Part shown: piece after piece, positions 3,529-62,997 of the stretch
Layout: every line of letters begins with the position of its first letter
Position numbering within the stretch: the stretch's first letter is position 1
From: an uncultured Candidatus Saccharibacteria bacterium
GTDB lineage: Bacteria; Patescibacteriota; Minisyncoccia; Phycocordibacterales; UBA12088
Assembly (NCBI GenBank): GCA_964562615.1
Contig: CAZLUD010000001.1
Span: forward strand, 129,072 to 193,071
Direction: 5' to 3'
DNA: 64,000 nucleotides
The notes under the pieces: model-generated
What the model saw: the letters and a program-made list of their open reading frames with translations, nothing else
Told to the model about the DNA's origin: nothing
The model's database searches: none
Made by a program: the position numbers and the translations under genes

Positions 3529-3909
3529 ATGGATGTCTCAATAAAAAACCTAACGAGATCTCCTCTTCCTCGTATCGCCTTTAATGAAATCAAGAAAGCC
3601 ATTCTAGGCTCGTCATACGAGCTTTCACTAGTATTTGTCGGTACAACCCGGTCACGTGCCCTTAACAAGCACTACAGAACCAAGGACAAGCCAACCAACG
3701 TACTTGCCTTCCCACTTGATGTTGCTATTGGGGAAGTATTTATTTGCCCCCATGTAGCAGACAAACAAGCACCAGATTTTTCATTGTCAAAAAAGGGCAT
3801 GGTCGCCTATCTCTTTATACACGCCTGCCTCCATCTAAAGGGCTTAGACCATGGTGCGCGCATGGAAGCACTTGAAGCGACCTACATGAAGAAGTTTTCA
3901 ATAACCTAA
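3529..3909 (+). CDS. ybeY: rRNA maturation endoribonuclease YbeY
   Basis: HACLHLKGLDHG is the YbeY HxxxHxxGxxH metal-binding motif. 126 aa. Confidence 0.85.
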   Translation: MDVSIKNLTRSPLPRIAFNEIKKAILGSSYELSLVFVGTTRSRALNKHYRTKDKPTNVLAFPLDVAIGEVFICPHVADKQAPDFSLSKKGMVAYLFIHACLHLKGLDHGARMEALEATYMKKFSIT

Positions 3910-4016
3910 CCAAAGTAGGTTATACACTTTTGCACAGGCACTGAGGACAACGCTATCCGAGTTATAGTGTAGAATACGTGTACCATGCGTCACCATGGGT
4001 TTATGTTGTACATGCA

Positions 4017-5201
4017 ATGGATATCGGTATAGGCAAAAAAATCGTCACTGGCATTGATATTGGCACCTCACACATAAAGGTGGTGATTGCTGAGTACTCA
4101 CAAAAAAACCCAAGTGCCATTCCACACATACTTGGTACCGGCGCCGCTCTCTCTAAAGGACTTCGTCACGGCTACATCATCAATAAAAGCGACACCGGAA
4201 GAAGTATACGCGCAGCGCTTCATCAAGCAGAAAAAGCAGCAGGCGTAAAAGTAAAAAAGGCATACCTTGCCGTAGGAGGCGTAGGGCTAGATGAGGTGCG
4301 ATCAAGCGGAGAAAGCATAACCTCACGAGCTGATCAAGAAGTCACCAGTCTTGATATCGCTCATGCGATTGAAGACGCAGAAGAACGAGTGGCGACAAAA
4401 ATCCAAAACAGAAAAATCCTTCACGTTATCCCGCTTCGATACAGACTTGATGGCGCGCCCGTGTTGGGTCGCCCACTTGGTATGAAGGGTAACAAGCTCG
4501 AAGCAGAAGTGCTCTTTATCACCAGCTTAGAGCAGCACCTTGAAGACCTCATCAGCACCATTGAAGACAGTGGTATTAGCGTCGTTGATGCAATGGCTAG
4601 TCCCCTTGCCGCAAGTTTTGTTACCCTTACCAAATCACAAAAGGTCGCGGGTGTTATGCTTGCAAATATAGGTGCTGAGACTGTATCAGTTGCGGTATTT
4701 GAAAATAATATTCCTATTTCATTAAAGGTATTCCCGATTGGCTCAACCGACATCACCAATGATATCGCCTTAGGGCTCAAAGTATCACTTGAAGAAGCCG
4801 AGCACCTAAAGCGTGGCACGCTTAGCAACTCAGAGCATCCACAAAAAAAGCTTGATCAAATAATCTCCGCTCGTCTTTCAGACATCTTTGACCTCATTGA
4901 TGCGCATCTTTCAAAAATTGGCAGAAACGGGCTTCTCCCTGCGGGCATTATCCTCACCGGCGGAGGCTCTGGTATCACCACTGTAGAAGATATGGCTCGC
5001 GCCACATTAAAGCTCCCGTCAAAGATTGGTCACATCATCGCGCAAAACGGCAATGGGGCTAAGTTTAAAGATTCATCATGGGCAGTATCATACGGACTCA
5101 CCATATGGGGCATGAGCGCTGACGAAGATTCGTTTGGCGTTGAGGTTGCAAAAAAAACCGGGAGCACGCTTATGTCATGGATAAAGCGCTTTTTGCCGTA
5201 G
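4017..5201 (+). CDS. ftsA: cell division protein FtsA
   Basis: GIDIGTSHIKVVIAE is the actin-like phosphate-1 motif. FtsA-like architecture, and it sits immediately upstream of ftsZ. Confidence 0.9.
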   Translation: MDIGIGKKIVTGIDIGTSHIKVVIAEYSQKNPSAIPHILGTGAALSKGLRHGYIINKSDTGRSIRAALHQAEKAAGVKVKKAYLAVGGVGLDEVRSSGESITSRADQEVTSLDIAHAIEDAEERVATKIQNRKILHVIPLRYRLDGAPVLGRPLGMKGNKLEAEVLFITSLEQHLEDLISTIEDSGISVVDAMASPLAASFVTLTKSQKVAGVMLANIGAETVSVAVFENNIPISLKVFPIGSTDITNDIALGLKVSLEEAEHLKRGTLSNSEHPQKKLDQIISARLSDIFDLIDAHLSKIGRNGLLPAGIILTGGGSGITTVEDMARATLKLPSKIGHIIAQNGNGAKFKDSSWAVSYGLTIWGMSADEDSFGVEVAKKTGSTLMSWIKRFLP

Positions 5202-5391
5202 TGGTCACGTGATAGAGCCATAGTATCAACTACATACTCCAACTGCTATACACAGACGCCGTACTGTGTCCTAATAATTTTTTATCTGTTTTGATTGAGT
5301 GACACTATAGAGTTGTGTCAAGTCTTTTCATCCCCACTCCATACTGGTACTATGTCGCTACGTTAATTTACGCCCGAATAGGCCCGAAACC

Positions 5392-6606
5392 ATGAAGCAA
5401 ATCCAACCAGAAGTAGAAGCATTCGCACGTATACGCGTTGTCGGCGTAGGCGGTTCAGGTAAAAACGCGACCAACCACATGATCGACTCCAAAGTTAAAG
5501 GAGTTGAATTTATTGCGGTTAATACAGACGCGCAAGACCTTCATCACTCTCTCGCTAAAAAGAAGATACACGTAGGAAAAAATCTTACCCGAGGACTAGG
5601 CGCAGGAGGTCATCCAGATATTGGCAGAAAAGCTGCTGAAGAAACCAAGGAAGAAATCCTCGATGCACTCAAAGGCTCTGACATGGTCTTTATTACCTGC
5701 GGTATGGGAGGCGGCACAGGCACGGGCGCAAGCGCGGTAGTCGCAAGCGCAGCAAAAGAAATTGGCGCCCTCACCGTGGGGGTGGTTACCAAACCATTTT
5801 CTTTTGAAGGCCAACAGCGCATGCGCATGGCAGAGCAAGGTATCGAAAACCTCAAGAAAGAAGTGGATGCGCTCATTGTGATTCCTAACGACCGACTCCT
5901 TGCCATTGTCGACAGAGACACCAGCGTCAAGAACGCGTTTGCCCTTTGTGACGACATCCTCCTACGAGCAGTTGAAGGTATCTCAGACCTTATTACCATG
6001 CCGGGTATCGTCAACGTAGACTTTGCCGACATTAAGTCAGTTATGGAAAACGCCGGAAGCGCACTCATGGGTGTGGGTATTGCCTCAGGAGAAAAGCGCG
6101 CAGAAGAAGCAGCACATCAAGCTATCAACTCTCCCCTTCTTGAAGTATCTATTTCTGGTGCTAAAGGAGTACTCTTTGCTATTGCAGGAGGTGATGACCT
6201 AGGTATGCTTGAAGTACAAGACGCGGCAAGAGTTATCACCGAATCTATCGACCCAAATGCTCGCGTTATCTTTGGTGCTATTAAAGACGAGAAGCTAAAG
6301 AAGAATGAAATAAAGGTAACCGTTATCGCCACCGGCTTCCCTGAGGGCATGCTCTCAAAGAGCTCTTCTCTCTTTGGTATTTCTGCACCACGCAGAGTAC
6401 AGCACGAGGAGGAGCGCGAAGAGAGAAGCGTTATACACAACTCTCTTGGTGATGTTGCCTCAATGGTAAAGCCTCGCATAGAAAACAAGGAGGAGATTAC
6501 AAATGTCATCCCAGAAGAAAAAAAGGAGAATACCAATTCCACTGATGATGACGATGATGATTGGGGTGCGGTTCCAGCATTTCTTCGAAGAAGCAAGATA
6601 AAGTAG
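5392..6606 (+). CDS. ftsZ: cell division GTPase FtsZ
   Basis: GVGGSGKNA and [10 protein letters not shown] tubulin signature motifs. Acidic/Asp-rich C-terminal tail. Confidence 0.95.
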
Positions 6607-6627
6607 TATCACGCACAACAAAGAACA

Positions 6628-6663
6628 ACACCAGCTACGTATGGTAGCTGGTGTTTTCTTTTT
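6628..6663 (+). terminator. rho-independent terminator after ftsZ
   Basis: Hairpin acaccagctac/gtagctggtgt followed by tttctttttt. Confidence 0.6.
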
Positions 6664-6665
6664 GC

Positions 6666-7157
6666 TCATAGGAGTTTAAATATAAGAACTATACCAGAAA
6701 GATACGCCAATATTATTTCTGGATGCGGCATACAATGACCCGCCTCCATTCGCATTGCCCGACCTCGGATATCTTGTTCGAGGACAGGTAGCTTTGCCTT
6801 ATTGCAAAGCCTAGCAAGTGAGAACAATGCCTCAGGTGTTATCGAAAGCGGGATAACCATTAACGACAATATATAAGGAACAAAACTAAGAGGTATTTCA
6901 ACAAATAAAAGAGCAGTACTAGCAGTCGCCACCGAAAAATAGCAATTACCAAAAAATGTTGCCGCCGCAAATTCTTTTGCTGTATACAAATACATGCAAA
7001 TGACAGCAGTTGTCAAAAAACTTATTTGTAAAATGAGCGAGGCAATTTCTAGCTCTTGTTTAGAAATTGAAATTGCAATACCACAAAGGAGTCCAATAAA
7101 AACCCTCAGGTAGTCCATTGTTACCCCCACCAGGTTAGACTCCGCGCAAAGTACCAC
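6666..7157 (-). CDS. hypothetical small membrane protein
   Basis: Multiple hydrophobic segments; no recognisable motif. Confidence 0.3.
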   Translation of the reverse strand: MVLCAESNLVGVTMDYLRVFIGLLCGIAISISKQELEIASLILQISFLTTAVICMYLYTAKEFAAATFFGNCYFSVATASTALLFVEIPLSFVPYILSLMVIPLSITPEALFSLARLCNKAKLPVLEQDIRGRAMRMEAGHCMPHPEIILAYLSGIVLIFKLL

Positions 7158-7223
7158 AAAATCTTAACCCACACAATAAGAAAAGGCGACCAGATACGGT
7201 CGCCTTTTCGCAAAAAACTACAT

Positions 7224-7574
7224 CTAGAAAAGAATGTAACAGAGAACTACGCCAATACCCACCACCCAAATCATTGTCTCCGATCTTGAGGAATCGTCTA
7301 AAAATACAATGGTCAGAAATACGACAATCGAAATAGTAGTAATTTTCACCATTACTATTGGGTAGTAAACGAATGCTGTTAGCACCGCTAACAGATACGA
7401 TAATCCTAGCAGCAACAACAATTTGTCTACTTTGAACATTTTTTCTGTAATACCAGCGCACGCTGGTATTACATCTCGTGCCTGCTCCATTTCTAACCCC
7501 TTTGGTTGAGGTTCCCCACTCAATAAACCACCACATGATATACTATGCAAGTACTTACCAATTTCAACCGACAC
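7224..7574 (-). CDS. hypothetical small membrane protein (start uncertain)
   Basis: Hydrophobic ORF. Possible internal starts at M29 or M46. Confidence 0.3.
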   Translation of the reverse strand: MSVEIGKYLHSISCGGLLSGEPQPKGLEMEQARDVIPACAGITEKMFKVDKLLLLLGLSYLLAVLTAFVYYPIVMVKITTISIVVFLTIVFLDDSSRSETMIWVVGIGVVLCYILF

Positions 7575-8498
7575 ATGAAAGATCTAGTAATCATAGGAGG
7601 CGGCCCGGCTGGCACCGCGGCAGGCGTATACGCAGCAAGAAAGAGACTAACCACCGTGCTCATCACTAAAGAGTTTGGGGGTCAAAGCGTAGTCTCAAGT
7701 GATATACAAAACTGGATTGGTACCCCCCATATTAGCGGCGATGCGCTAGCCACCTCATTTACCGCACACCTCAAAGAATACGCAGACACGGTACTTACCC
7801 TCACGACTGGTAAAGTAACCTCAATTACCCCCCTCTCTGGTGGATTTACGGTCACGCTAGATGATGCGAGCACCATAGAAACAAAAACTGTCCTTATCGC
7901 CGCAGGTGCAGATAGACGAAGACTTACTGTACCAGGAGCAGATACGTACGACCACAAAGGTGTTGTGTACTGTGCGTCATGCGATGGCCCTCTCTTTAGT
8001 GGTATGGATGTGGCGGTAATTGGCGGAGGTAATGCGGGATTTGAAACCGCAGCACAACTACTTGCGTATGCTACATCTGTTACCCTTCTTGAATACAACA
8101 CGTCATTCAAGGCGGACACTATTACTGTGGATGCAGTAACTAAACATCCTCAAATGAAGGCGCTCACAAGCGCGCGACTTGATGAAATTACCGGTGACAC
8201 CATGGTAACAGGCATACGCTACACCAACACGATCACAAATGACGTAGTTACCCTGCCTGTTAAGGGGGTATTTGTAGAGATAGGACTCATTCCTAACACG
8301 TCATTTTTGGACGGTGTCGTAGAGCTAGATCACATGAAGCGGGTAAAGATTGACCCACTCACCCAGCGCACCAATGTTGCGGGTATATGGGCAGCGGGTG
8401 ATTGTACCAATGTCCTCTATCACCAAAACAACATAGCGGCAGGCGACGCCATAAAAGCACTTGAGGATATATACCTCTATATCCAAAAAACTGCCTAA
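7575..8498 (+). CDS. trxB: thioredoxin-disulfide reductase
   Basis: MKDLVIIGGGPAGTAAG (FAD GxGxxG), CASCDG redox-active CxxC, and a second NAD(P) Rossmann motif GGGNAG. Confidence 0.9.
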   Translation: MKDLVIIGGGPAGTAAGVYAARKRLTTVLITKEFGGQSVVSSDIQNWIGTPHISGDALATSFTAHLKEYADTVLTLTTGKVTSITPLSGGFTVTLDDASTIETKTVLIAAGADRRRLTVPGADTYDHKGVVYCASCDGPLFSGMDVAVIGGGNAGFETAAQLLAYATSVTLLEYNTSFKADTITVDAVTKHPQMKALTSARLDEITGDTMVTGIRYTNTITNDVVTLPVKGVFVEIGLIPNTSFLDGVVELDHMKRVKIDPLTQRTNVAGIWAAGDCTNVLYHQNNIAAGDAIKALEDIYLYIQKTA

Positions 8499-10321: not shown

Positions 10322-11074
10322 ATGAAAGTAGAATCACATGCAGTAATTGAAACTAGCAATCTATCACGGATAATATTTTCCGAGCCAATTTTGTATACAT
10401 CACCTTCAAAAGGTGAGGTAAAAATTATGAATCACGACAAAGACAGCAACATCCTTGTTGTGATTATGAATATGGACGTTCAGCACCGCGATGTAGCAAC
10501 ATTCGAATCTGAACGAGAGCTAGTACGAGTCGTTAGCCGTTTAAGCTGGGTACATAATCTTGCAATTGAAAAATATCGTATAACCGGCTATCAATATTCA
10601 GAAACAGCAAATCAAACAAATGCTGTTGTTCTTGCCACAACACTACATATCAATGCGTCAATTTCTGTAATAAAAACAGTTGGGAGGGACGGGGTGGAAA
10701 AACTTAGTACTACATTATCAAAAAACTATACTGAAGAACTAGATTCACTATTGTCTAAGTGGCGTGATGCTATTCGTCAAGAATCATCAATGATTCGGTT
10801 AGTACTTATGTATCAAATACTTGAGTCACTAGCTGGCAGAGTCCGAAGTAAGGTTGAAAAAATGATACGTGACAAAGACCCGCATATTGAATTGCGCAAT
10901 ACTGGCATAAAAAATGATCAGGTTGTAAGTGTATACACTTACCTACGCGACTGTATTCATTTAAAACCAGAAAATCCTCAGTTTCCTTTTCATGAGGTAG
11001 AAGCACATGTCATTCCCATGCAGGAACTTGTAAGAAAAGTACTTAAAGAAAAGTTTACAGACTTACCAGAGTGA
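10322..11074 (+). CDS. hypothetical protein
   Basis: 250-aa ORF immediately after the tRNA-fragment region; no recognisable domain. Confidence 0.4.
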   Translation: MKVESHAVIETSNLSRIIFSEPILYTSPSKGEVKIMNHDKDSNILVVIMNMDVQHRDVATFESERELVRVVSRLSWVHNLAIEKYRITGYQYSETANQTNAVVLATTLHINASISVIKTVGRDGVEKLSTTLSKNYTEELDSLLSKWRDAIRQESSMIRLVLMYQILESLAGRVRSKVEKMIRDKDPHIELRNTGIKNDQVVSVYTYLRDCIHLKPENPQFPFHEVEAHVIPMQELVRKVLKEKFTDLPE

Positions 11075-34324: not shown

Positions 34325-34503
34325 GGTGTGCTTGTTATATATTAATACGGATCATTGTGTTTACACTCACATGCTCATAGAGGTGTCAGATCAACACAAC
34401 AAGCCAAAACCCTACTCACGTAGTATACGACCAAATGTACTCCTTGCACATATATATCTGTGGAATAACAAATGAACACACCCGCGTTGAGGCGGGTGTG
34501 TTC

Positions 34504-34543
34504 ATATCTCTATGTCTGTGCCTATAAGCCGAATTCTGTCTAT
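34504..34543. repeat. 40-bp direct repeat (left copy) identical to the rnpB 3' end
   Basis: atatctctatgtctgtgcctataagccgaattctgtctat, identical to 35993-36032. Preceded by hairpin gaacacacccgcgttgaggcgggtgtgttc. Confidence 0.9.
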
Positions 34544-34571
34544 TAATCTTTACAAGCTCAGAAATACTCAC

Positions 34572-35309
34572 TCAACGATACCGCACCTCCCAGTTACCGT
34601 GGAAAACAAATCCTGTTTCTTGTGAGAGATAATCAATAATTTTCTTGGCTGCTATAGTAACATTATCTACTTTGAGTAATTCTACATAAAGTGCGTGGAA
34701 CTCCCCTCGATCATTTGTTCCGCGTTTTTTTATGAGCTCATTTTTGTGTATACAGTAAAATTGCATTGAGGCTGAGATAATCTCAGCCATTGCTAGGTTT
34801 ACCTCTACTTGGTCATTGCTCCAAATAAGATCATCATAGGCATCCGTAATCTTGTACCAAAGCTGAGGCAACAATGTATCTTTATTCATATACCCAGGAA
34901 ATACCTCAAGATATTGTTTGCAGGTGGCAACAATCTCTACAAGATGTTCCTCCCCAAAAAGTACTTTACCTTCTCCAAAAACATAAAATGGAAGAGTTTC
35001 CGTAGATCCTATACATTCATCAAGATGTTTTTTAATCATCGATAAGGAACCTGAAAAGTAATCAATTCGCTTGGTTTCTGAATAATAATGATTTCCCCGA
35101 AAAACACTATTTTCATTTAATACTAAGAAAATATCTATATCGTTAATTTCTTTTTCTGTCTTATACAAGGCTGAACCAAAAAGAATAGCCGCGATCACAG
35201 TAACATTGTGTTTACTTGAAAAGTCTTCTATAAAACTCATCACGTTTGATTCAACCATACTTATATATTTATGTTTGATATTAAAAATAGGAGAAGCGTG
35301 TGTTTCCAC
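34572..35309 (-). CDS. nucleotidyltransferase (Pol-beta superfamily, KNTase/ANT(4')-like architecture)
   Basis: AAILFGSALYKTEKEINDIDIFLV is the GS...D.D NTase motif. About 245 aa with a helical C-terminal domain. Confidence 0.55.
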   Translation of the reverse strand: METHASPIFNIKHKYISMVESNVMSFIEDFSSKHNVTVIAAILFGSALYKTEKEINDIDIFLVLNENSVFRGNHYYSETKRIDYFSGSLSMIKKHLDECIGSTETLPFYVFGEGKVLFGEEHLVEIVATCKQYLEVFPGYMNKDTLLPQLWYKITDAYDDLIWSNDQVEVNLAMAEIISASMQFYCIHKNELIKKRGTNDRGEFHALYVELLKVDNVTIAAKKIIDYLSQETGFVFHGNWEVRYR

Positions 35310-35333
35310 ATACTTCTCCCACGAACAAGGTGG

Positions 35334-35843
35334 TCAGTCGATTGGGGTAAGAAGTGGCCGCTCTGACGAACGGATCTTGCTGTTGTCCTCAAGTAAAGTT
35401 CCACCACACCACTGACCTGTACAGGTCAGTGGAACCACCTGATGCGGAATCATACCATCTCGAAACTCGCCAAACCTACTGATAACTAAGCGCAAAGTGC
35501 GTCTCGCCGAGTCAATGAGGTTCTTTCGGTCTGCATCGCCCCTCATTCCATAGTACGGAAAGTGGTGCAGAAATCGACCAAAGAGGTCGTTACAATCCTG
35601 CTGGTACTTTTCAGTGTCCAAAATGTGGGCGTGCCATACATCATCGACACCTCCCCAAGGAACAACAGGTTCGTTATCCTGTTGTAATAGCGCTTCTCCG
35701 ACAAGGACTAGAAATTTTCGGTACTCACCGACGGTGGCTTCAGCCCTTTCACGGCTCCAGCCTTTGCCATCCTCTGAATCCACCAACTTTACGATGATAG
35801 GTTCAAGATTCAAGTCTTGGACCTTTTGGTAGATGCTAGACAC
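35334..35843 (-). CDS. DUF1399 (GRDP-like) domain protein
   Basis: VDDVWHAHILDTEKYQQDC ... HHFPYYG matches the DUF1399 D.xWHxHxLxPxxYxxDC motif. Confidence 0.45.
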   Translation of the reverse strand: MSSIYQKVQDLNLEPIIVKLVDSEDGKGWSRERAEATVGEYRKFLVLVGEALLQQDNEPVVPWGGVDDVWHAHILDTEKYQQDCNDLFGRFLHHFPYYGMRGDADRKNLIDSARRTLRLVISRFGEFRDGMIPHQVVPLTCTGQWCGGTLLEDNSKIRSSERPLLTPID

Positions 35844-35992
35844 TGAGACTCTCCTTAGTTAGGTGACCTCTGCAATCAGAATTGCATCATTGCAAATGCT
35901 AACATAAATAAATACTAGAACAAACATTTATTTAATATTGCTTAAACCCGCTATGTATTTTATATAAATACGCCCACAAGATGGGCGTATTT

Positions 35993-36032
35993 ATATCTCT
36001 ATGTCTGTGCCTATAAGCCGAATTCTGTCTAT
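35993..36032. repeat. 40-bp direct repeat (right copy), the genuine rnpB 3' end
   Basis: The reverse complement reads ATAGACAGAATTCGGCTTATAGGCACAGAC, matching the RNase P P4 3'-strand consensus ACAGAAnnCGGCUUA. Confidence 0.9.
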
Positions 36033-36400
36033 CCCTATAGGTGAGTAACTATAGAGGAGATAGGTATGTATCTAGGAGTGTTGTTACCAACACCCTCAAG
36101 CGGCTCTCCCCGCCTATCGTAGGCTTCTATTATATATAAAATACTACGATAGGCGGGGCACGGCCTTGCACGCAGGTAGGAATTTTGCCGTTTCAGTCTT
36201 GCCTCACAACAAGATTTTCTCCATATCGCATTGCGCTATGGAGACCGCATTTCTCTCGAAATAACGCGTCTCTGTTCGCATCCCGTGGATTACTCCAGGT
36301 GGGCGTTACCCACTACCATGCTCCAGCTTGCGCTGGGCGTGTTCGGACTTTCCTCTCCCATTACACTTTCGCACAACAAGAGCAACTATCCAGCACAGGC
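36000..36400 (-). ncRNA. rnpB: RNase P RNA (bacterial type A-like, compact)
   Basis: Minus strand contains GGGAGAGGAAAGTCCGAAC (P4 5' strand), GGGTAACGCCCACCTGG and ACAGAATTCGGCTTATAGG (P4 3' strand). P1 is formed by CTGTG/CACAG. A sigma70-like promoter lies upstream and a hairpin downstream. Confidence 0.75.
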
Positions 36401-36406
36401 GATAAA

Positions 36407-36435
36407 TATTATACAACACTTTTTCTTATATAGCA
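36407..36435 (-). promoter_or_regulatory. sigma70-like promoter for rnpB
   Basis: In minus sense: ttgcta, 17 nt, tataat. TSS about 7 nt downstream. Confidence 0.5.
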
Positions 36436-36436
36436 A

Positions 36437-37866: not shown

Positions 37867-37952
37867 GGAGGGTTCGCATAGTGGTCGAGTGCGCCGCCTT
37901 GGAAAGGCGGTATTGGGGAAACCCAATCGAGGGTTCGAATCCCTCACCCTCC
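37867..37952 (+). tRNA. tRNA-Ser (anticodon GGA)
   Basis: Acceptor ggagggt/accctcc. Anticodon stem ccgcc/ggcgg with loop ttggaaa. Long variable arm attggggaaacccaatc. T-arm gaggg-ttcgaat-ccctc. Confidence 0.8.
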
Positions 37953-38000
37953 GCAAAACAAGGAGAACGATGCGAAGCATTGGGTGACTATGTTTTGGGT

Positions 38001-38025
38001 GATAAGTGAGGGATTCGAACGCCGG
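38001..38025. repeat. inverted partial copy of the tRNA-Ser(GGA) 3' end
   Basis: gtgagggattcgaacgcc is the reverse complement of ggcgttcgaatccctcac. It shares 15 nt with the tRNA T-arm and acceptor 3' strand. No complete tRNA folds on the minus strand. Confidence 0.6.
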
Positions 38026-38191
38026 AGTATATTACGTAAGCAATATGAGGCACCATCCTAGGAATGCGAGGATTTTTGTGAGCCTCTTGAGGCGGTACAA
38101 AAACCCGCAATTCAGGGGACCATCCTTAACTTTCCACCAAGTATAGAAAATAATTTTAGCAGTTACCCTACTTCTCCATTACAATGAAATC

Positions 38192-38755
38192 ATGCCGCAG
38201 AACAAAATTTTCATTGTCCGACATGGTGAGTCTGAGAATAATCTTCAAGGGATTGATTGCTCCAAATTGGAGCATAAAGACAAATTTGGTTTAACTGAAG
38301 CTGGACAAAGACAAACCGAATCTGAAGCAAAGAATTTTGATGATTTTGACCTCATCATCACTTCACCACATAGACGGGCAGTAGAAACTGCAAACATTTT
38401 TGCACGTTATTCGGATTGTAAAGTTATTGAAAATGAATTCATTAGCGAAGTGAATTATGGCGATTTTGATCTTTATCCCTATGAGATATCCGATGCTTGG
38501 TTCAAAAATAAGGGCAGCGACGAATCACATCCTTTTCCTAATGGAGAGAGCTTATTTGATGCAAAAGAGCGCACAGCTAAATTTCTACAACGGATAAAGC
38601 AAACTTACTCTAACAAGAAAATCCTGATTGTTACCCACGGACACATCGTCCTGCTTTTACAAGAATTGCTCGATGAAAATTTTGAGCGACAAAAGGCAAT
38701 TGATGCTTACGACGATGATAAATCGAGAAAGGTGATAGAAGCCTACAGCCTCTAA
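38192..38755 (+). CDS. histidine phosphatase family protein (phosphoglycerate-mutase-like)
   Basis: IFIVRHGESENN (RHG catalytic motif) and HGHIV. Confidence 0.8.
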   Translation: MPQNKIFIVRHGESENNLQGIDCSKLEHKDKFGLTEAGQRQTESEAKNFDDFDLIITSPHRRAVETANIFARYSDCKVIENEFISEVNYGDFDLYPYEISDAWFKNKGSDESHPFPNGESLFDAKERTAKFLQRIKQTYSNKKILIVTHGHIVLLLQELLDENFERQKAIDAYDDDKSRKVIEAYSL

Positions 38756-38905
38756 AAATTACTTCCTATAACATTGCGCATGCAGTTCCTTGGCGGAGCT
38801 CATTTTAATGCATATGGATGCTTCCACATTTCATCAGTACGAGTGAATCTCTGATAAATTTTTTTAGTTCCATGTTTTTTATAAAAAAGAGGAAGACTTA
38901 GATTG

Positions 38906-39829
38906 CTACCTCTTATTCAAGAGCGCATCAATTCTATCTTCAACTGGTGGGTGTGTCATAAAGAGTGAGGCAAACCAGCTTCGCTTCGGTTCACCTTCTT
39001 CACGCTCTCCTTCTGTATCACCAAATGGATTTGCAATAAAAAGGTGCGCGGTGGCGTGACTTGCGCGCGCCATGTGATGCCCTCTGCCATAGGCGTGTAT
39101 TTTTTTGAGTGCTGAAGCTAATCCCTCCGGATAGCGAGTAAGAAGTGCGCCCGATGCATCAGCCAAAAACTCTCGCTTTCGAGAAATCGCAAGTTGTAGT
39201 AACTGGGCAGCAAGTGGTGCAAGTATTGCCCCAACAATACCAAGCACAAGAATGATAAGTCCCGCCTTTCCATCTCGCTCTCTCTCACCACCAAACATAC
39301 TCATACGCATAAACATGTCAGAGAGTATCGCGACAAACCCAACCAACACCACCGCCACGGTAGATATGAGCATGTCACGATTACCAATATGCGACAGCTC
39401 ATGTGCGGCCACCCCCTCAAGCTCTGCTCTATCAAGTATGGCAAGGAGTCCAGTAGTAAAAGCAACAAGTGAATGTTCAGGACTTCTCCCTGTAGCAAAG
39501 GCATTAGGCACTGGATCATCCACTATGTACACCTTAGGCTTGGGAAGCCCCGCTGTGATAGCGAGATTTTCAACAATGTTATGTAAGTCGGCATAGGTAT
39601 GCTCATCAGCAGGGTGTGCGCCTGTCATTGATACCACTAGCGAATCAGAAAACCAGTAACTCCCCACATTCATAATGATGGCAATTGCTACCGAGACGTA
39701 CAATATAATTTGATTGTCAAAGTAGAAACTAAATCCCCACCCAAGCGTAATTACCGCAATAAAGAATCCGATAAGGAGATACCAGGTCTTGCGAATATTT
39801 GCATCCTTGTGTGTGTAGAGTGTTGCCAT
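38906..39829 (-). CDS. htpX: HtpX-like M48 zinc metalloprotease
   Basis: HELSHIGNRD HExxH motif, N-terminal TM helices, M48 architecture. Confidence 0.85.
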   Translation of the reverse strand: MATLYTHKDANIRKTWYLLIGFFIAVITLGWGFSFYFDNQIILYVSVAIAIIMNVGSYWFSDSLVVSMTGAHPADEHTYADLHNIVENLAITAGLPKPKVYIVDDPVPNAFATGRSPEHSLVAFTTGLLAILDRAELEGVAAHELSHIGNRDMLISTVAVVLVGFVAILSDMFMRMSMFGGERERDGKAGLIILVLGIVGAILAPLAAQLLQLAISRKREFLADASGALLTRYPEGLASALKKIHAYGRGHHMARASHATAHLFIANPFGDTEGEREEGEPKRSWFASLFMTHPPVEDRIDALLNKR

Positions 39830-40658: not shown

Positions 40659-41588
40659 ATGAGAATGCCTACTTTTACTGGGACCGCTGGTAACAACTCC
40701 TCGACGCAGACTGGGCTTATCCCGTGGGATAAGTTCTATATGCTCGAGGGGAAAGACTTGCTCGACCTTACCGGAGCAACGGGGAATCTCCCGTTCTACG
40801 TCTACGGTGGAGCAGGTGACGACACCTTGAGGGGTTCTTCCCGCACTGCCACCATCATGGATGGCGGTACGGGGAACGACTCCTTTGTGGTGAACAACAA
40901 GGGCAACGTCGTGGTGGAAGCGGCGAATCAGGGATACGACACCCTGTACATCGCCACTCCCTACGTCGATGCTGGGGGTTCGCGGTCGATCGTAATGGCC
41001 GGAAGCGGCGTCAGTGGTGGGTACACCGTTGACGTCGATGTCGAGGCCGTTCGGGCCAATGTATTTAGTGGAAGTATCGGACCCAAGAGCGTTGGGTTCA
41101 CCTTCCACGGAAACAGTGGTGCGAACACCTTCGGCGGCTCCGAGGGTGGCGATACTATGCGTGGCAACGCTGGTAACGACACTCTCGAAGGCAAAGGCGG
41201 TAACGATCGCCTCCAGGGCGGAGTCGGACTCGACATCCTCGTTGGGGATGGCGGGAATGACGTCCTCTTTGGGGACAAGTCCGACGGTGACAAGATCACC
41301 GGCGGCGCTGGTGCAGATCTCTTCGTCTTCGGCGGTAGGGGTGGAACGCAAATCACCCTTACCGATATCGTGATGGACTACGACCGAGTTCTGGACGATA
41401 TTGTCCTCCAGGGCATCGGTGGTATCAAGAGCGTATCAGGAGTCACAGCGGGTGGAACCACCCAAGTGACGGTGGTTGGCACCACTGATACCGCCATTTT
41501 CTCTATGGCGGGGTCATACTCGACCTCGGTGCTCAACAGCATGTTGGGTGCGAACGACATCCGCGTCGACAACAATTTGTTCGTCTGA
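40659..41588 (+). CDS. RTX-type calcium-binding repeat protein (GGxGxD nonapeptide repeats), GC-rich foreign gene
   Basis: YGGAGDDTLRGS, GGTGNDSFVV and GNAGNDTLEGKGGNDRLQGGVGLDILVGDGGNDVLFGD. No N-terminal signal peptide. GC visibly much higher than the flanks. Confidence 0.7.
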   Translation: MRMPTFTGTAGNNSSTQTGLIPWDKFYMLEGKDLLDLTGATGNLPFYVYGGAGDDTLRGSSRTATIMDGGTGNDSFVVNNKGNVVVEAANQGYDTLYIATPYVDAGGSRSIVMAGSGVSGGYTVDVDVEAVRANVFSGSIGPKSVGFTFHGNSGANTFGGSEGGDTMRGNAGNDTLEGKGGNDRLQGGVGLDILVGDGGNDVLFGDKSDGDKITGGAGADLFVFGGRGGTQITLTDIVMDYDRVLDDIVLQGIGGIKSVSGVTAGGTTQVTVVGTTDTAIFSMAGSYSTSVLNSMLGANDIRVDNNLFV

Positions 41589-58710: not shown

Positions 58711-59091
58711 GGGGATGATTGGCCTCGACAGTGAGTATGTGTTGCATAGTGTGCGAGTTCGTGTGAGGTGACACGGTAAAAACATCTCAACCAATACGTG
58801 CTACAAAACTTCGCACGGCAATTCTTTCACCTTTCCAGATGAAGGATTTTGCACTCGCTGTAGCCTAAGGCTCGCGACATCCTACAGAGTATTGTCTGAT
58901 AGCTTTGTAACGGTGTAATACCATCAGAACCGCAGAAAGGGTGCATCGCCTTATCTGTTAAATAATGATGCTATATGGTATCGGCTTTTGACGAATTTTC
59001 TATCGACACCACGAACCAACAAATTCGCCAAGACTTCGTAGACTCACTATGCACTCCTCTCTGGATGCGGGTTCGATTCCCGCCATCTCCA
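58711..59091 (+). ncRNA. ssrA: tmRNA (SsrA), standard one-piece
   Basis: 5' GGGGATGATTGGCCTCGACAG (tRNA-like half). Candidate tag ORF GCA-ATT ... GCACTCGCTGTAGCCTAA encodes AILSPFQMKDFALAVA-stop. 3' GGATGCGGGTTCGATTCCCGCCATCTCCA, whose acceptor pairs with the 5' GGGGATG. Confidence 0.8.
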
Positions 59092-59093
59092 CA

Positions 59094-59493
59094 AAACATA
59101 CATCAAGCGCCTTCGGGCGCTTTTTGTTTTGTGGAGATCGAGCGAGCAAACTGCTTTGCTCGCGTCGGGAATCGAAAGACGCAGGCATATCGCGAAGCGA
59201 TGCCGAGTCGTGGTCAAGAGTGCTTAGTATTTTTAGAGCAACGCGAATAAAAATAGTTAGCAACTCGTGACCGATCCGCCATCTCCACAGATTAAAACAA
59301 TACCGCCGCTTAGGCGGTTTTTGTTTTGACTGTGGAATGGAAGACGATGCCTTCGCATCGTCTGTCGGGAATCGAACGGCGGAGCGTTATACGCACGACA
59401 GAAAGGAGTACGTATCGCGAGCCGCGTCCAACAACACTTAACGAATGCAATGAGTTTAGTGATTGTGGGACGATTCCCGCCATCTCCACAAAT
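59094..59493. repeat. two tandem ~200-bp units carrying direct partial copies of the tmRNA 3' end plus inverted T-loop fragments
   Basis: ccgatccgccatctccaca at 59271 and cgattcccgccatctccacaaa at 59471. Inverted gtcgggaatcgaa at 59165 and 59364. Each unit begins with a hairpin plus T-run (59105-59125, 59304-59323). Confidence 0.8.
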
Positions 59494-59573: not shown

Positions 59574-60101
59574 ATGAAATCACCGACCATCGAATCTGGT
59601 TCCTATGTTATAAGACCGTTTAAGACGAGTGATGCCGAATTGTGGCAAACGTGGGATATTGATCATGAAGTGCAAGCATTTATGCCGGAGCCGTTTAATG
59701 AACCACAAGAAATTAAGGAGCAGTACGCATACATAAAAGCATGTGATGCTGATGAAGAAGGATACTACTGGTCAATTGAAACGAAGGACGGAGTCACAAT
59801 TGGTACCATCGCACTCACAGAATACAATGACTACCATGGCGTTGCTAATCTCGGTATTGTTATCGGAGATAAAAACTATTGGGGCAAAGGGGTTGCAACG
59901 GAGACCATCACTACTCTTGTCGACTATGCATTTACGAATCTAAATCTTTTCTATATTAGCGCTGAAGTTGAGGAAGGAAATATTCCGATGATGAATGTCC
60001 TAGAAAAAGTCGGGTTCAAACAAGATGGTTTATTTGAATCAGCTCGGGTAAAAAATGAAAAACGAATCAATGTTCACCATTTCAGTATTGTTAAGTGGTA
60101 A
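59574..60101 (+). CDS. GNAT acetyltransferase, RimL/RimJ-like
   Basis: SYVIRPFKTSD ... GVANLGIVIGDKNYWGKGVATE ... NIPMMNVLEKVGF matches the RimL-type GNAT. Confidence 0.8.
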   Translation: MKSPTIESGSYVIRPFKTSDAELWQTWDIDHEVQAFMPEPFNEPQEIKEQYAYIKACDADEEGYYWSIETKDGVTIGTIALTEYNDYHGVANLGIVIGDKNYWGKGVATETITTLVDYAFTNLNLFYISAEVEEGNIPMMNVLEKVGFKQDGLFESARVKNEKRINVHHFSIVKW

Positions 60102-60604
60102 TGAATATTTATATGAAAAGCATAAAAATAACCCCCATTAAACAACGAGACGCTAGTGCCTGCGGACCTACCAGTATTGAAATGACTCTGAAATACTTTG
60201 ACGTACCACATACAGTCGCGGATATTACTAGGATAACTAACTATAAAAAAGAAGGTGGCATATACAACAAACAACTGGTGGGCGTGCTACAACACTATGG
60301 CCTTAAGACAAAAGTTTTGAAGAATACCTCTTGGGAACAACTGATGGGACTAAATACCAAAGATTCTGTGATAATTCTTTCTTGGATGCTTGATGGCTAC
60401 ATTGGACACCTTAGTGTTTTGGATAATGTTGATAAAGACCATATCTATCTCGCAGAACCTACAACTGGAGAAATATTAAGGATAGGTAAGATAAAGTTTC
60501 TCAGACTCTGGTTAGACTACGAGGCTAAAGCTGAAGTACCGTTATTCCCCGAATCAAAGTCTGACATTCAACTGAGGTGGTTGTGTATTGCATCGAAACC
60601 ATAA
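60095..60604 (+). CDS. stand-alone peptidase C39-like cysteine protease
   Basis: IKQRDASACGPTSIEMTLKYFDV (Gln oxyanion plus Cys nucleophile as in C39), a later GHLSVL His and an Asp. 7-nt overlap with the GNAT gene. Confidence 0.6.
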   Translation: MVMNIYMKSIKITPIKQRDASACGPTSIEMTLKYFDVPHTVADITRITNYKKEGGIYNKQLVGVLQHYGLKTKVLKNTSWEQLMGLNTKDSVIILSWMLDGYIGHLSVLDNVDKDHIYLAEPTTGEILRIGKIKFLRLWLDYEAKAEVPLFPESKSDIQLRWLCIASKP

Positions 60605-60661
60605 GCAAAGAAAAAACCCAAAAGCCAATGAAGGCCTTGGGTTTTCAAGTTATGTCCTGAG

Positions 60662-61891
60662 TCACTTTTTCAGACTTACCCAATGCAGTACTTTCATGAG
60701 GATATGGAAGACCAGGCTGGTCGTCATATCATCACGATCGAGTGCTGGACTAAGTTCGACGACATCCATGCCAACAACCTGGTTGTGCTCAATAACCGCA
60801 CGTAACAACTTCAGCAGCGCCTGCGGGGTCATGCCGAGCGGTACAGGAGTACCAGTTCCAGGAGCGAAAGATGGGTCGAGTACATCAACGTCGAAACTGA
60901 TATAGCACTTCCTCCCTTTTGGCAGCCTAGTTGCAAGCACATTAGCCAGTCCTTCTTCGATGACGACCTGAGTTGTTGTCTGACACCTTTCTTCCCCAAG
61001 GGGAGCACCGGCAAAACCACGCACTCCAAACTGGAGCAAATGGGCAGTTGGGTTTTCATGCACAACCCGTCGCATGACGTTGCCATGATGATGCTCTGAA
61101 CCAACTTCCCACTCCCCCATGTCTGTGTGCGCATCCAGATGGATGATGACTATCTCTCCGTGGACTTCTGTACACGCACGAATGAGTGGCGCAGAGATTG
61201 AGTGGTCTCCCCCAATGAAGACAGGAAATGTACCACTCCGATGTGACAATAAAGCGCCCCGATAGCAACGCTCATAGACAGTCGCAAGAGATTCCCCCGT
61301 TCGATACGCAACATTGCCCAGATCTCCAAACGGAACTCCTTCAAGGATCACAGTCCCTAGGTCGGCGTTATACCAACCACGGTTTCTTCTGGTAAAGATA
61401 TCCCGCTCGTAAGCCAGAAACTTCGCCGAAACTTCACGGAGTCGATCCGGACCAAAGCGAGTACCGGGATTGCCGGTCGCCGCCTGGTCTAGACATACCC
61501 CCGCCACAACGATTGTTCCTTCTTCGAGACTACACACATCGACTGCAGGCGAGTACACGAACGGTGTTCGCGCACTAACAAATAAGGTTTCCCTATCGAC
61601 AACCAGCGGCTCTTCAGCTTTTCCGTCTACTACTTCAATTAGAAAGAAAGCTTCAGCAAACGCAGCAAGAATCAATAGAAATTCCTCGTACGGTTCACCC
61701 CCAGCCACTCCAAGCTCCATCGCTGCTTCATGCGTACTTTTAACTACACGGAAAGCTACGAGGATCTTCAAGGACTCCTCAGTCAGAGAAAGCCGATGAC
61801 CAGTCCGAGTGTTGTGTAGCACAACCCCATTCTCGCCATCTTCACTTTCAAGCATGAGGTGTCTTGATACAACATACGAATCAGTACTCAT
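60662..61891 (-). CDS. arginase/agmatinase-family (ureohydrolase) enzyme with N-terminal RRE/PqqD-like domain: candidate peptide arginase
   Basis: GGDHSIS, IIHLDAHTDM, SFDVDVLDPSFAPGTGTP and MDVVELSP ureohydrolase Mn-binding motifs. The N-terminal 90 aa, VVLHNTRTGHRLSLTEESLKILVAF, is PqqD-like. ATGA start/stop overlap with the upstream gene. Confidence 0.75.
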   Translation of the reverse strand: MSTDSYVVSRHLMLESEDGENGVVLHNTRTGHRLSLTEESLKILVAFRVVKSTHEAAMELGVAGGEPYEEFLLILAAFAEAFFLIEVVDGKAEEPLVVDRETLFVSARTPFVYSPAVDVCSLEEGTIVVAGVCLDQAATGNPGTRFGPDRLREVSAKFLAYERDIFTRRNRGWYNADLGTVILEGVPFGDLGNVAYRTGESLATVYERCYRGALLSHRSGTFPVFIGGDHSISAPLIRACTEVHGEIVIIHLDAHTDMGEWEVGSEHHHGNVMRRVVHENPTAHLLQFGVRGFAGAPLGEERCQTTTQVVIEEGLANVLATRLPKGRKCYISFDVDVLDPSFAPGTGTPVPLGMTPQALLKLLRAVIEHNQVVGMDVVELSPALDRDDMTTSLVFHILMKVLHWVSLKK

Positions 61892-62997
61892 GACTCTCCT
61901 CTCTTGTGCCCACAGTATGGGCACGTATGCCGTTTTCTGAATTTGCGGAAGTTGATGTCGTAGGTACGAAAATCCAACTCCGCAACCTTATTGGTCATCG
62001 TTGGTTTCGAGAAACCAGTAACGACCTTCACCGCATCCAATACATGATAGTTTGCGGTGATCGCGCAAATAGCAGCGATATTTCCACCCTTAATGTGCGT
62101 ATTAGTAACTGCCAATTGCTGATACTCAGCTCGATGAAGCTGTTTATTAAGCGCGTGCTCATAGCAGTACCAACACGCTGATTCTCCAGGAATGACCGTT
62201 GGTCCGATAAAGCTTAAGTGTCCATCATACCCACCGCAGAGAATATGAGGCACTTGTAGCTCAAAGCAAACTTCCGTGACAATCCGATTAACCACATCCG
62301 TACTCGGATCATCCGCACAGGAGATAATCAAACTGCTACCTCGCATCCCCACAAGGCAATCTTGTGGTGACACAACTTGCTGTGCAATACCCTGGACTGA
62401 GATTTCAGCATCAATGGAACAGAGTTTTCGTTCCGCCACTTGAACCTTTAGGGATCCGACGTCATCAACATTGAACAAACACTGTCTGTTCAAGTTTGAT
62501 ATTTCTACTACGTCTGGATCGATGAATGTAAAGTTACGGGCACCAGCCAGAGCAAGACCTTGGGCAACCCAAGTACCAATCCCTCCCAAACCGATTATCG
62601 CAACCCGCGCTCTATGTAAACGCTCTTGCATCACTTCGCGGGATTGGGTTCTTGTCTCAAACTCCGCAAAGAAATTACGCTGGGTTGCAAATTTATCTTG
62701 GTCAATAACGGCAGGATGCTTTTTGGTAGCCAGTACCCGACTCTTTTGGAGTACAGATACCAGTCGCCGCACCTCTATGATTGGGAGGCCTGCTTTCCTT
62801 GCTATCTCTTCGATTGAATGCAAACCATCAAAATATTGCAAGCAACCAAAAGCCTCTTTGTTAAGTTGAAACGGCAGGACAACACTACTTGCATTGAAGA
62901 GAAAGTTCACTTCATAGACATCTCGAACACCTCTGTACAAGACAGAGATACTGTCTTTGACCCGTGGAAACACTGCATGGACTCCTTCCGTAGACAT
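61888..62997 (-). CDS. ThiF/MoeB/MccB-like E1 adenylyltransferase with N-terminal RRE-like peptide-binding domain and C-terminal Cys4 zinc site
   Basis: ARVAIIGLGGIGTWVAQGLALAGARNFTFIDPDVVEISNLNRQ (E1 nucleotide-binding). CWYC ... CPYC. The N-terminal ~110 aa, FNASSVVLPFQLNKEAF ... SIEEIARKAGLPIIEVRRLV, is winged-helix/RRE-like. Confidence 0.8.
   Translation of the reverse strand: MSTEGVHAVFPRVKDSISVLYRGVRDVYEVNFLFNASSVVLPFQLNKEAFGCLQYFDGLHSIEEIARKAGLPIIEVRRLVSVLQKSRVLATKKHPAVIDQDKFATQRNFFAEFETRTQSREVMQERLHRARVAIIGLGGIGTWVAQGLALAGARNFTFIDPDVVEISNLNRQCLFNVDDVGSLKVQVAERKLCSIDAEISVQGIAQQVVSPQDCLVGMRGSSLIISCADDPSTDVVNRIVTEVCFELQVPHILCGGYDGHLSFIGPTVIPGESACWYCYEHALNKQLHRAEYQQLAVTNTHIKGGNIAAICAITANYHVLDAVKVVTGFSKPTMTNKVAELDFRTYDINFRKFRKRHTCPYCGHKRGES

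Follow-up and report, generated by a model that had tools for sequence, protein, structure and literature searches.

A 1.45-kb two-gene operon without a recombinase gene, inserted at the 3' end of rnpB in an uncultured Candidatus Saccharibacteria bacterium

The rnpB locus and the two genes between its repeats

The 64,000-nucleotide stretch analyzed here, called the window throughout, is part of contig CAZLUD010000001.1 (assembly GCA_964562615.1) from an uncultured Candidatus Saccharibacteria bacterium. Next to rnpB, its gene for RNase P RNA, lies a two-gene operon of 1.45 kb that is bounded by two copies of a 40-bp direct repeat and encodes no recombinase; our main finding is that this operon was gained cleanly and fairly recently at the 3' end of rnpB. 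An exact search confirmed what an earlier note on this DNA had read from the letters, namely that the 40-mer ATATCTCTATGTCTGTGCCTATAAGCCGAATTCTGTCTAT is present at both ends of the insert with 0 mismatches between the copies (Table 1). A third copy was not found in the window on either strand with up to 3 mismatches allowed, and a shuffle control gave 0 matches in 100 shuffles. In a repeat search, the pair grew leftwards to 50 nt at 94% identity. The right copy belongs to a complete rnpB of class A: the Rfam model RF00010 (bacterial RNase P class A; gathering score, 100 bits) matches the minus strand with 128.1 bits over model positions 1 to 367, without truncation, and the Rfam alignment places ACAGAAUUCGGCUUAUAGGCACAGAC, the P4 and P1 3' strands, inside that copy. 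This agrees with the earlier note, as does the presence of a hairpin terminator after each copy in the rnpB sense. To the right of the left copy, no rnpB sequence continues.

Outside the window, a core 24-mer derived from rnpB was located at 5 genomic loci (one genome per species) and 6 metagenome loci, and it was single-copy and inside rnpB in 11 of 11; in IMG/VR it was not found. Dispersal of the repeat over many unrelated loci, which the note had named as evidence against an insertion, was thus not seen. The explanation that the repeat is a chance match or a dispersed intergenic repeat unrelated to any insertion was rejected on these grounds, together with the shuffle control and the limit of two copies in the window, and we give it practically no weight.

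Table 1. Features of the rnpB locus, in window coordinates
Feature	Position	Strand	Description
Left terminator hairpin	34472..34505	-	14-bp stem, then U-rich tail UUUGUUAUU; terminator scan and fold, shuffle z -4.65
Left 40-bp repeat copy	34504..34543	-	Exact match; displaced, nonfunctional last ~35 nt of rnpB plus 5 nt
Insert	34544..35992	-	1,449 bp, absent from the sister species; two minus-strand open reading frames
Pol-beta-type nucleotidyltransferase (NTase)	34572..35258	-	228 amino acids (aa) from conserved ATG; downstream gene of the pair
Intergenic hairpin	35300..35330	-	Between the cargo genes, then U tract UAUUUUUAAU; centroid -21.7 kcal/mol, z -4.5
GRDP-like / UCP032817-like protein	35334..35843	-	169 aa; upstream gene of the pair; GTG start
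Palindromic leader/operator motif (candidate)	35870..35888	-	ATGCAAT-N-ATTGCAG; upstream of the GRDP-like gene, -10-like box before it
Right terminator hairpin	35962..35996	-	16-bp stem, directly after functional rnpB; fold z -4.38; inverted repeat I7
Right 40-bp repeat copy	35993..36032	-	Functional rnpB 3' end (P4 and P1 3' strands)
rnpB	35998..36401	-	RNase P RNA class A, full length; RF00010
Promoter-like sequence	36436..36408		TTGCTA-17-TATAAT, just upstream of rnpB

The two open reading frames (ORFs) of the insert leave non-coding portions of only 28 nt, 75 nt, and about 150 nt, and both fall outside the integrases, as the note had stated of this cargo. The downstream gene encodes the NTase, with Pfam matches to PF18765 (E value of 9e-7) and PF01909 (3e-5). 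Alignment with four homologs placed its start at the ATG at 35258, which is M18 of the 245-aa longest ORF (GTG at 35309), and in the same alignment the GS...DxD motif (G45 S46, D57-x-D59) is invariant. A C-terminal helical domain follows the Pol-beta domain. The AlphaFold (AF2) model of the protein is of medium confidence (predicted local distance difference test [pLDDT] score of 74.6), and in Foldseek it matches ANT(4'), the kanamycin nucleotidyltransferase (KNTase), over the full length (template modeling [TM] score of 0.52 to 0.57, probability of 0.99 to 1.0, 10 to 11% identity) and, more weakly, the NTase HalB of the Hailong defense system (TM score of 0.41 to 0.47). The Pfam domain, the invariant motif, and the model together point to an overall KNTase-like fold. 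In this respect the note's term "KNTase-like NTase" appears apt, but it does not extend to the sequence level, where identity is 10 to 11% and where no PDB sequence matched at an E value of ≤1 and no NCBIfam resistance model was hit. Matches to the NTase core in NCBIfam and PADLOC were all below threshold, the only NCBIfam match being MntA with 21.8 bits against a cutoff of 60, and the all-helical partner protein had no HEPN match. The pair was accordingly not placed among the MNT-HEPN (type VII toxin-antitoxin) systems, and a defense or toxin-antitoxin assignment of the cargo was rejected. In a HMMER search of 1.84 billion representatives, the NTase subfamily forms a single 50%-identity cluster at E values of <1e-30, with the next match at 2e-11.

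The upstream gene begins at a GTG 6 nt after the Shine-Dalgarno-like sequence AAGGAGAG. The note had called it a DUF1399 gene, which is only approximately right: the match to PF07173 (GRDP-like/DUF1399) has an E value of 0.066 and 14.3 bits, under the 22.7-bit cutoff and so below membership, and a precomputed annotation, covering a family that is not in the local Pfam copy scanned, assigns the protein and 155 homologs to PF27765 (UCP032817-like). We retain the term GRDP-like for convenience; the DUF1399 literature that was found concerns plant GRDP proteins only. Several residues are invariant (W-H-x-H-I-L-D-T, HH, D, and C), a pattern that suggests a metal site. The model is a confident, all-helical fold (pLDDT of 88.5), for which no structural relative was found among solved structures. 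Between the two genes, the hairpin at 35300-35330 may be an internal attenuator or terminator; by reading, it is kept in a related copy of the pair (contig L015, described below), with the stem altered on both sides.

By tblastn, the two genes are adjacent and in the same order at every other place where they were found. The closest copy (74% and 82% aa identity for the GRDP-like protein and the NTase, respectively) is on the 1,489-bp Logan contig L015, which has rnpB-like sequence at both ends. Related bacteria carry more diverged copies of the pair in at least three further chromosomal contexts: 69% and 53% identical after an unannotated 189-aa ORF (L016 and L021), and downstream of a class II aminoacyl-tRNA synthetase gene at 66% and 55% (L020) and at 63% and 50% (L017 to L019). 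Neither rnpB nor flanking repeats were found around the pair in these three contexts, the longest common string there being 7 nt, which is the chance level. The pair was never found beside an integrase, phage, or plasmid gene, and a phage, plasmid, or virus origin of the cargo was rejected, as no phage, plasmid, or IMG/VR relatives of either gene were found. The palindrome lies about 35 to 45 nt ahead of the start codon in every context of the pair (the window, L015, L016/L021, L017, and L020). Because this palindrome and a -10-like box precede the first gene in all of them, the conserved unit appears to include its own expression signals. The stem bases of the palindrome are invariant and so give no covariation evidence; it may serve as an operator or a leader hairpin.

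The two genes also differ in guanine-plus-cytosine (GC) content in every genome examined, with 0.49 to 0.60 for the GRDP-like gene and 0.30 to 0.38 for the NTase gene, a contrast of 11 to 29 points. A foreign origin, as might be read from the GC dip at 34600-35200 of the window, was rejected since the same contrast between the low-GC NTase gene and the high-GC GRDP-like gene occurs in every context. In a separate observation, the terminator that follows the NTase gene in L017 (positions 10700-10745; GGTACCCTAGGCAGACTTGCCTAGGGTACC) and the one that precedes the pair in L020 (8625-8665; GGGTCACCCTAGGCAAATGCCTAGGGTGACCC) proved homologous. Judged from this homology, the pair seems to sit in L017 and L020, as at rnpB, between the end of a gene and the ancestral terminator of that gene.

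Contig L015 is as compact as the insert in the window, with 1,429 bp of unique sequence and the same content. Upstream of the pair, it has a terminator 25/27 identical to the left hairpin of the window and 11 nt that resemble the rnpB tail. Downstream of the NTase gene, positions 1460-1489 match the P12 hairpin of the clade's rnpB (window positions 36243-36272) at 26/30 nt; this stretch begins 32 nt past the NTase stop codon and is oriented as a displaced 3' fragment would be. These similarities suggest that L015 is a second rnpB-linked copy of the cassette. By analogy with the loop contig L001 of the window's own insert, a duplication of about 290 nt of rnpB could be present in L015, for which the contig is too short to serve as proof.

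The empty site in the sister species

The sister genome GCA_964409035.1 (L005/L022), a metagenome-assembled genome labeled Candidatus Saccharibacteria, has an empty site. Its locus is 82% identical in nucleotides to the left flank of the window over 6.5 kb, a neighboring protein is 94% identical in amino acids, and the left flank passes through one terminator straight into rnpB. With 10-kb flanks, the gene order is that of the window (DUF1761, DUF192, rnpB, a tetratricopeptide repeat [TPR] protein, MurJ, and LepA), and the distance from the DUF192 gene to the TPR gene is 768 bp in the sister as against about 2,250 bp in the window. When positions 34544-36032, that is, the insert and one repeat, are left out, the window is collinear with the sister sequence from end to end. 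Two Logan contigs of the sister species (L023 and L024) also read through the site without an insert. In more distant relatives that share the MurJ/LepA synteny (L009 to L011), the arrangement is again terminator and rnpB, and the insert is absent. The earlier note had asked for a comparison with close relatives, expecting an empty site if there had been an insertion and the same repeats without any insertion polymorphism if there had not; the sister species bears out the former, with rnpB, the terminator, and the TPR gene in place and no insert. At the rnpB 3' end there is a real insertion polymorphism.

The left hairpin is collinear with the host flank and is homologous to the sole rnpB terminator of the sister genome and of L010 and L011. 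We regard the left hairpin as the ancestral terminator of rnpB and the right hairpin as one that came in with the insert, because the left is contiguous with the host-flank homology and the right is not. The right hairpin is itself similar to the terminator of the sister species (z of 5.8), with homology confined to the hairpin; an extended homology between the right-hand intergenic region of the insert and the host intergenic region was considered and rejected, as no significant similarity was found beyond the hairpin (z of 0.7). Past the 40 bp, homology between the two ends of the insert thus reaches the terminator hairpin only, and on the rnpB-internal side it breaks off sharply at the end of the 40-mer. 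Homology limited to the hairpin and the 40 bp is what would be expected if the incoming DNA carried just a terminator and an rnpB end.

The same comparison bears on timing. The repeat copies in the window are identical at 40/40 positions, the rnpB end of the sister differs from them at 2/40, and the flanks differ by about 18%. Because the left copy is unconstrained and still identical at 40/40, set against 2/40 and about 18% between species, the duplication would have arisen after the two species diverged, unless the copies have been kept alike by gene conversion. The direction of change was probably gain rather than loss. In Logan contigs recorded from several sequencing runs, the insert is 99.1 to 100% identical. 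Two of these contigs (L001 and L002) are 1,509 bp long, or 1,449 + 2 x 30, and cut 30 nt into each repeat copy; the length follows from the break that a k = 31 graph makes at that point. A free circle, as might be read from such contigs, was rejected as evidence since they are de Bruijn loops. Among homologs of the flank protein, the next best after the cluster of ≥90% identity is 50% identical; in the two partial members of this cluster, the end of the gene toward the site is missing.

Other parts of the window were compared in passing. At a distance of 2 kb from the rnpB insert, the two genomes differ in gene presence a second time (window positions 38126-38909 against L022 positions 3687-7675). 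About 170 nt downstream of a tRNA-Ser(GGA) gene (37867-37954), the window has a low-GC histidine-phosphatase gene (38192-38755), and the sister has about 4 kb with seven genes instead (glyoxalases, DUF1801, MerR/TipAS, and polyketide cyclase-like); a 15-nt perfect inverted copy of the T-arm of the tRNA-Ser is found at 38006-38020, at the boundary of the difference. Further on, positions 40659-41588 hold a gene for a 309-aa RTX calcium-binding-repeat protein with a GC content of 0.56 to 0.59 in a genome of 0.44; it is kept in the sister (308 aa, same position) and is therefore no recent acquisition. A transfer-messenger RNA (tmRNA) gene at 58711-59094 (84.5 bits) is followed by genes for a GNAT acetyltransferase, a C39-like peptidase, and arginase-family and ThiF-family proteins (59574-62997). 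The other long ORFs of the window resemble housekeeping genes by eye (FtsA, FtsZ, GroEL, LepA, and similar).

How the operon may have reached rnpB

The topology of the locus is best explained, in our view, by a single reciprocal crossover with circular DNA, which probably inserted a non-autonomous cassette just downstream of rnpB. The cassette would consist of the promoter, the leader palindrome, the GRDP-like gene, and the gene for the KNTase-like NTase. Its partner in the crossover would have been a circular DNA of about 1.49 kb that carried the cassette together with an rnpB 3' end and terminator of its own, acquired at an earlier time from a related bacterium. A single reciprocal exchange within the final 40 bp of rnpB would have duplicated these 40 bp and left rnpB intact, with the terminator that came in (35962-35996) now serving it. 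The NTase transcript would now end in the displaced stub of 40 bp and the ancestral terminator (together 34472-34543). Writing R for the 40-bp repeat and termL for the left terminator, the junctions in the window read termL-R-TAATCTTT (attL) and ...GGGCGTATTT-R-CCCTATAGG (attR), from which the empty site would be termL-R-CCCTATAGG (attB) and the closed circle ...GGGCGTATTT-R-TAATCTTT (attP). The two repeats could also recombine with each other, which would delete the cassette cleanly.

Since the cassette encodes no recombinase, the crossover would have been catalyzed in trans, either by an integrase encoded elsewhere or by host RecA acting on DNA that had been taken up. The circular intermediate and the enzyme are both inferred, and we rate a site-specific integrase in trans and RecA as about equal; either would give an identical product topology. 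The earlier note had favored insertion mediated by a tyrosine integrase and had described rnpB as a known but rare att site. The repeat geometry fits a RecA-dependent Campbell insertion equally well, and Pfam scans of 28 ORFs across the window gave no integrase, resolvase, or transposase. Nor did the literature support the second statement: no description of rnpB as an attachment site was found in the full texts searched, and in the papers containing these terms rnpB figures simply as an annotated gene or a control.

Several points weigh against a single crossover with a circle as we have described it. No circular form, attP junction, or cognate recombinase was seen, and the 1,509-bp loop contigs do not tell a circle from an integrated copy. 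For a RecA-dependent crossover, 40 bp is near the lower limit. There is one closely related genome only, and the choice of gain over loss rests on parsimony and on the 40/40 identity. In its three other contexts, the pair has no flanking repeats, so that mobility of the pair itself is not demonstrable. If the rnpB duplication in L015 does span about 290 nt, the junctions there differ from those in the window, which a single fixed integrase core would not predict; such a duplication would instead favor homology-driven insertion with variable junctions.

Three other explanations were considered, each of them less likely than a single crossover with circular DNA. The pair and the duplication might be ancestral and old in the clade, in which case the sister would have lost them by recombination between the repeats, and the difference would go back to a deletion rather than to a recent insertion. 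The observed empty site is just what recombination between direct repeats would produce; the somewhat more distant clade member L015, with its P12-like fragment, also seems to carry the pair beside rnpB, and the GC contrast, being intrinsic to the pair, is uninformative on recency. Against this stands the 40/40 identity of the unconstrained left copy, at a divergence between species of 2/40 for the constrained rnpB end and about 18% for the neutral flank; moreover, the more distant syntenic relatives L009 to L011 are empty, and the cargo of L015 is far more diverged (74 to 82% aa identity) than the host proteins of the sister are (94%). We therefore regard ancestral presence followed by loss as rather improbable. 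Still less probable, to our judgment, is a decayed genomic island, that is, a larger integrase-bearing element at the rnpB 3' end that lost its integrase and all mobility genes by internal deletion, so that only two cargo genes remained between the att repeats. In keeping with this account, the repeats are arranged as after an integrase-type insertion into the 3' end of a structured RNA gene, and the site is empty in relatives. What such an account leaves unexplained is that the pair, with its promoter and leader motif, is a stable operon in three other, purely chromosomal contexts, that remnants of other genes are lacking in the short non-coding parts of the insert, that the cargo has no phage, plasmid, or IMG/VR relatives, and that L015 is equally compact; furthermore, repeats that are still identical leave little time for so complete a decay. 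Of the "decayed or mobilizable mini-island" proposed in the note, the first half is therefore weakened, as the pair is a stable chromosomal operon in those contexts without mobile-element genes.

The remaining explanation is an assembly artifact, in which a free 1.49-kb circle or sequence from another population, sharing 40 bp with rnpB, was threaded into the chromosome. In a k = 31 graph the insert is a loop on a 40-bp node, and integrated and free forms give the same graph. However, the repeat is bridged by reads and assembly k-mers of more than 40 nt, and the assembly of the window continues across both junctions; the loop also recurs in at least two independent samples, 13 substitutions apart, and a replicon of 1.49 kb without any replication gene is implausible. 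We consider an artifact very improbable.

In a bolder extension of the single-crossover explanation, which we regard as possible but doubtful, the operon would be a miniature integrative cassette of Patescibacteria; lacking a recombinase, it would attach at the rnpB 3' end and be moved in trans from genome to genome. Neither an autonomous element nor an integrase at the same site was found at the 11 other loci with the rnpB 24-mer or in IMG/VR, and of the host genome 64 kb is visible. If this extension were true, movement would depend on a recombinase encoded elsewhere, or on natural transformation followed by a single crossover, and rnpB would obtain a fresh terminator at each insertion. L015 would in that case represent another, independent insertion linked to rnpB, making rnpB a recurrent landing site, and the cassette would be the smallest att-flanked element described for Patescibacteria.

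Comparison with known systems

To our knowledge, few mobile elements have been characterized in the Candidate Phyla Radiation (CPR)/Patescibacteria, and the routes of gene gain in these bacteria are poorly known. The operon described here, which has no recombinase and was gained cleanly and recently where an essential ribozyme gene ends, is a concrete case of gene acquisition by a reduced genome; it may have come about by site-specific recombination in trans or by capture through homology once DNA had been taken up. If it was a one-off recombination accident, it is a well-documented but ordinary indel. The cargo is of interest in itself as an unstudied, strictly linked pair, composed of an NTase with a predicted KNTase fold and a confidently folded partner without a solved structural relative. 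Like ANT(4') (PDB 1KNY and 6NMK), the NTase is modeled with an N-terminal Pol-beta domain and a C-terminal helical bundle over its full length. Unlike ANT(4'), to which it is only 10 to 11% identical, it is always paired with a GRDP-like protein.

As to the insertion, integrative mobile elements exploiting Xer (IMEX), which use XerCD at dif, do not accommodate the insert, whose site is the 3' end of rnpB. Campbell-type integration, as seen with suicide plasmids and with circularized fragments after natural transformation, has exactly the topology of the insert, with the homologous segment duplicated as hybrid copies; as in the insert, homology fades on one side (here the terminators) and ends abruptly where that of the fragment ends. 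The perfect homology of the insert is only 40 bp, or about 75 bp if the diverged hairpin is counted, a length in the lower range for RecA, and the origin of the proposed 1.49-kb circle is unexplained. We know of no natural example of this type at rnpB.

Cis-mobilizable elements (CIMEs) are att-flanked segments without recombination genes that lie next to integrative and conjugative elements (ICEs) of streptococci. The insert shares with them att-like direct repeats at a conserved gene end, the lack of a recombinase of its own, and a presumed dependence on a recombinase acting in trans. Unlike the CIMEs, it has no known cognate ICE or integrase that uses the site, and its mobilization in trans is hypothetical. 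The islands and prophages that tyrosine integrases place at the 3' ends of tRNA and tmRNA genes differ in other ways: the target here is rnpB, for which no published att-site case was found in the literature searched; the insert is 1.45 kb long and lacks genes for an integrase, an excisionase, or any other mobility function; the scan of 28 ORFs of the window gave no integrase; and the cargo operon is chromosomal elsewhere. In their layout, those islands and the insert nonetheless correspond closely. In both, a structured RNA gene has its 3' end duplicated as a direct repeat, the incoming copy keeps that gene whole, a stub is left at the far end, and the site is empty in relatives. The insertion described here would add rnpB to the structured RNA genes that serve as landing sites.

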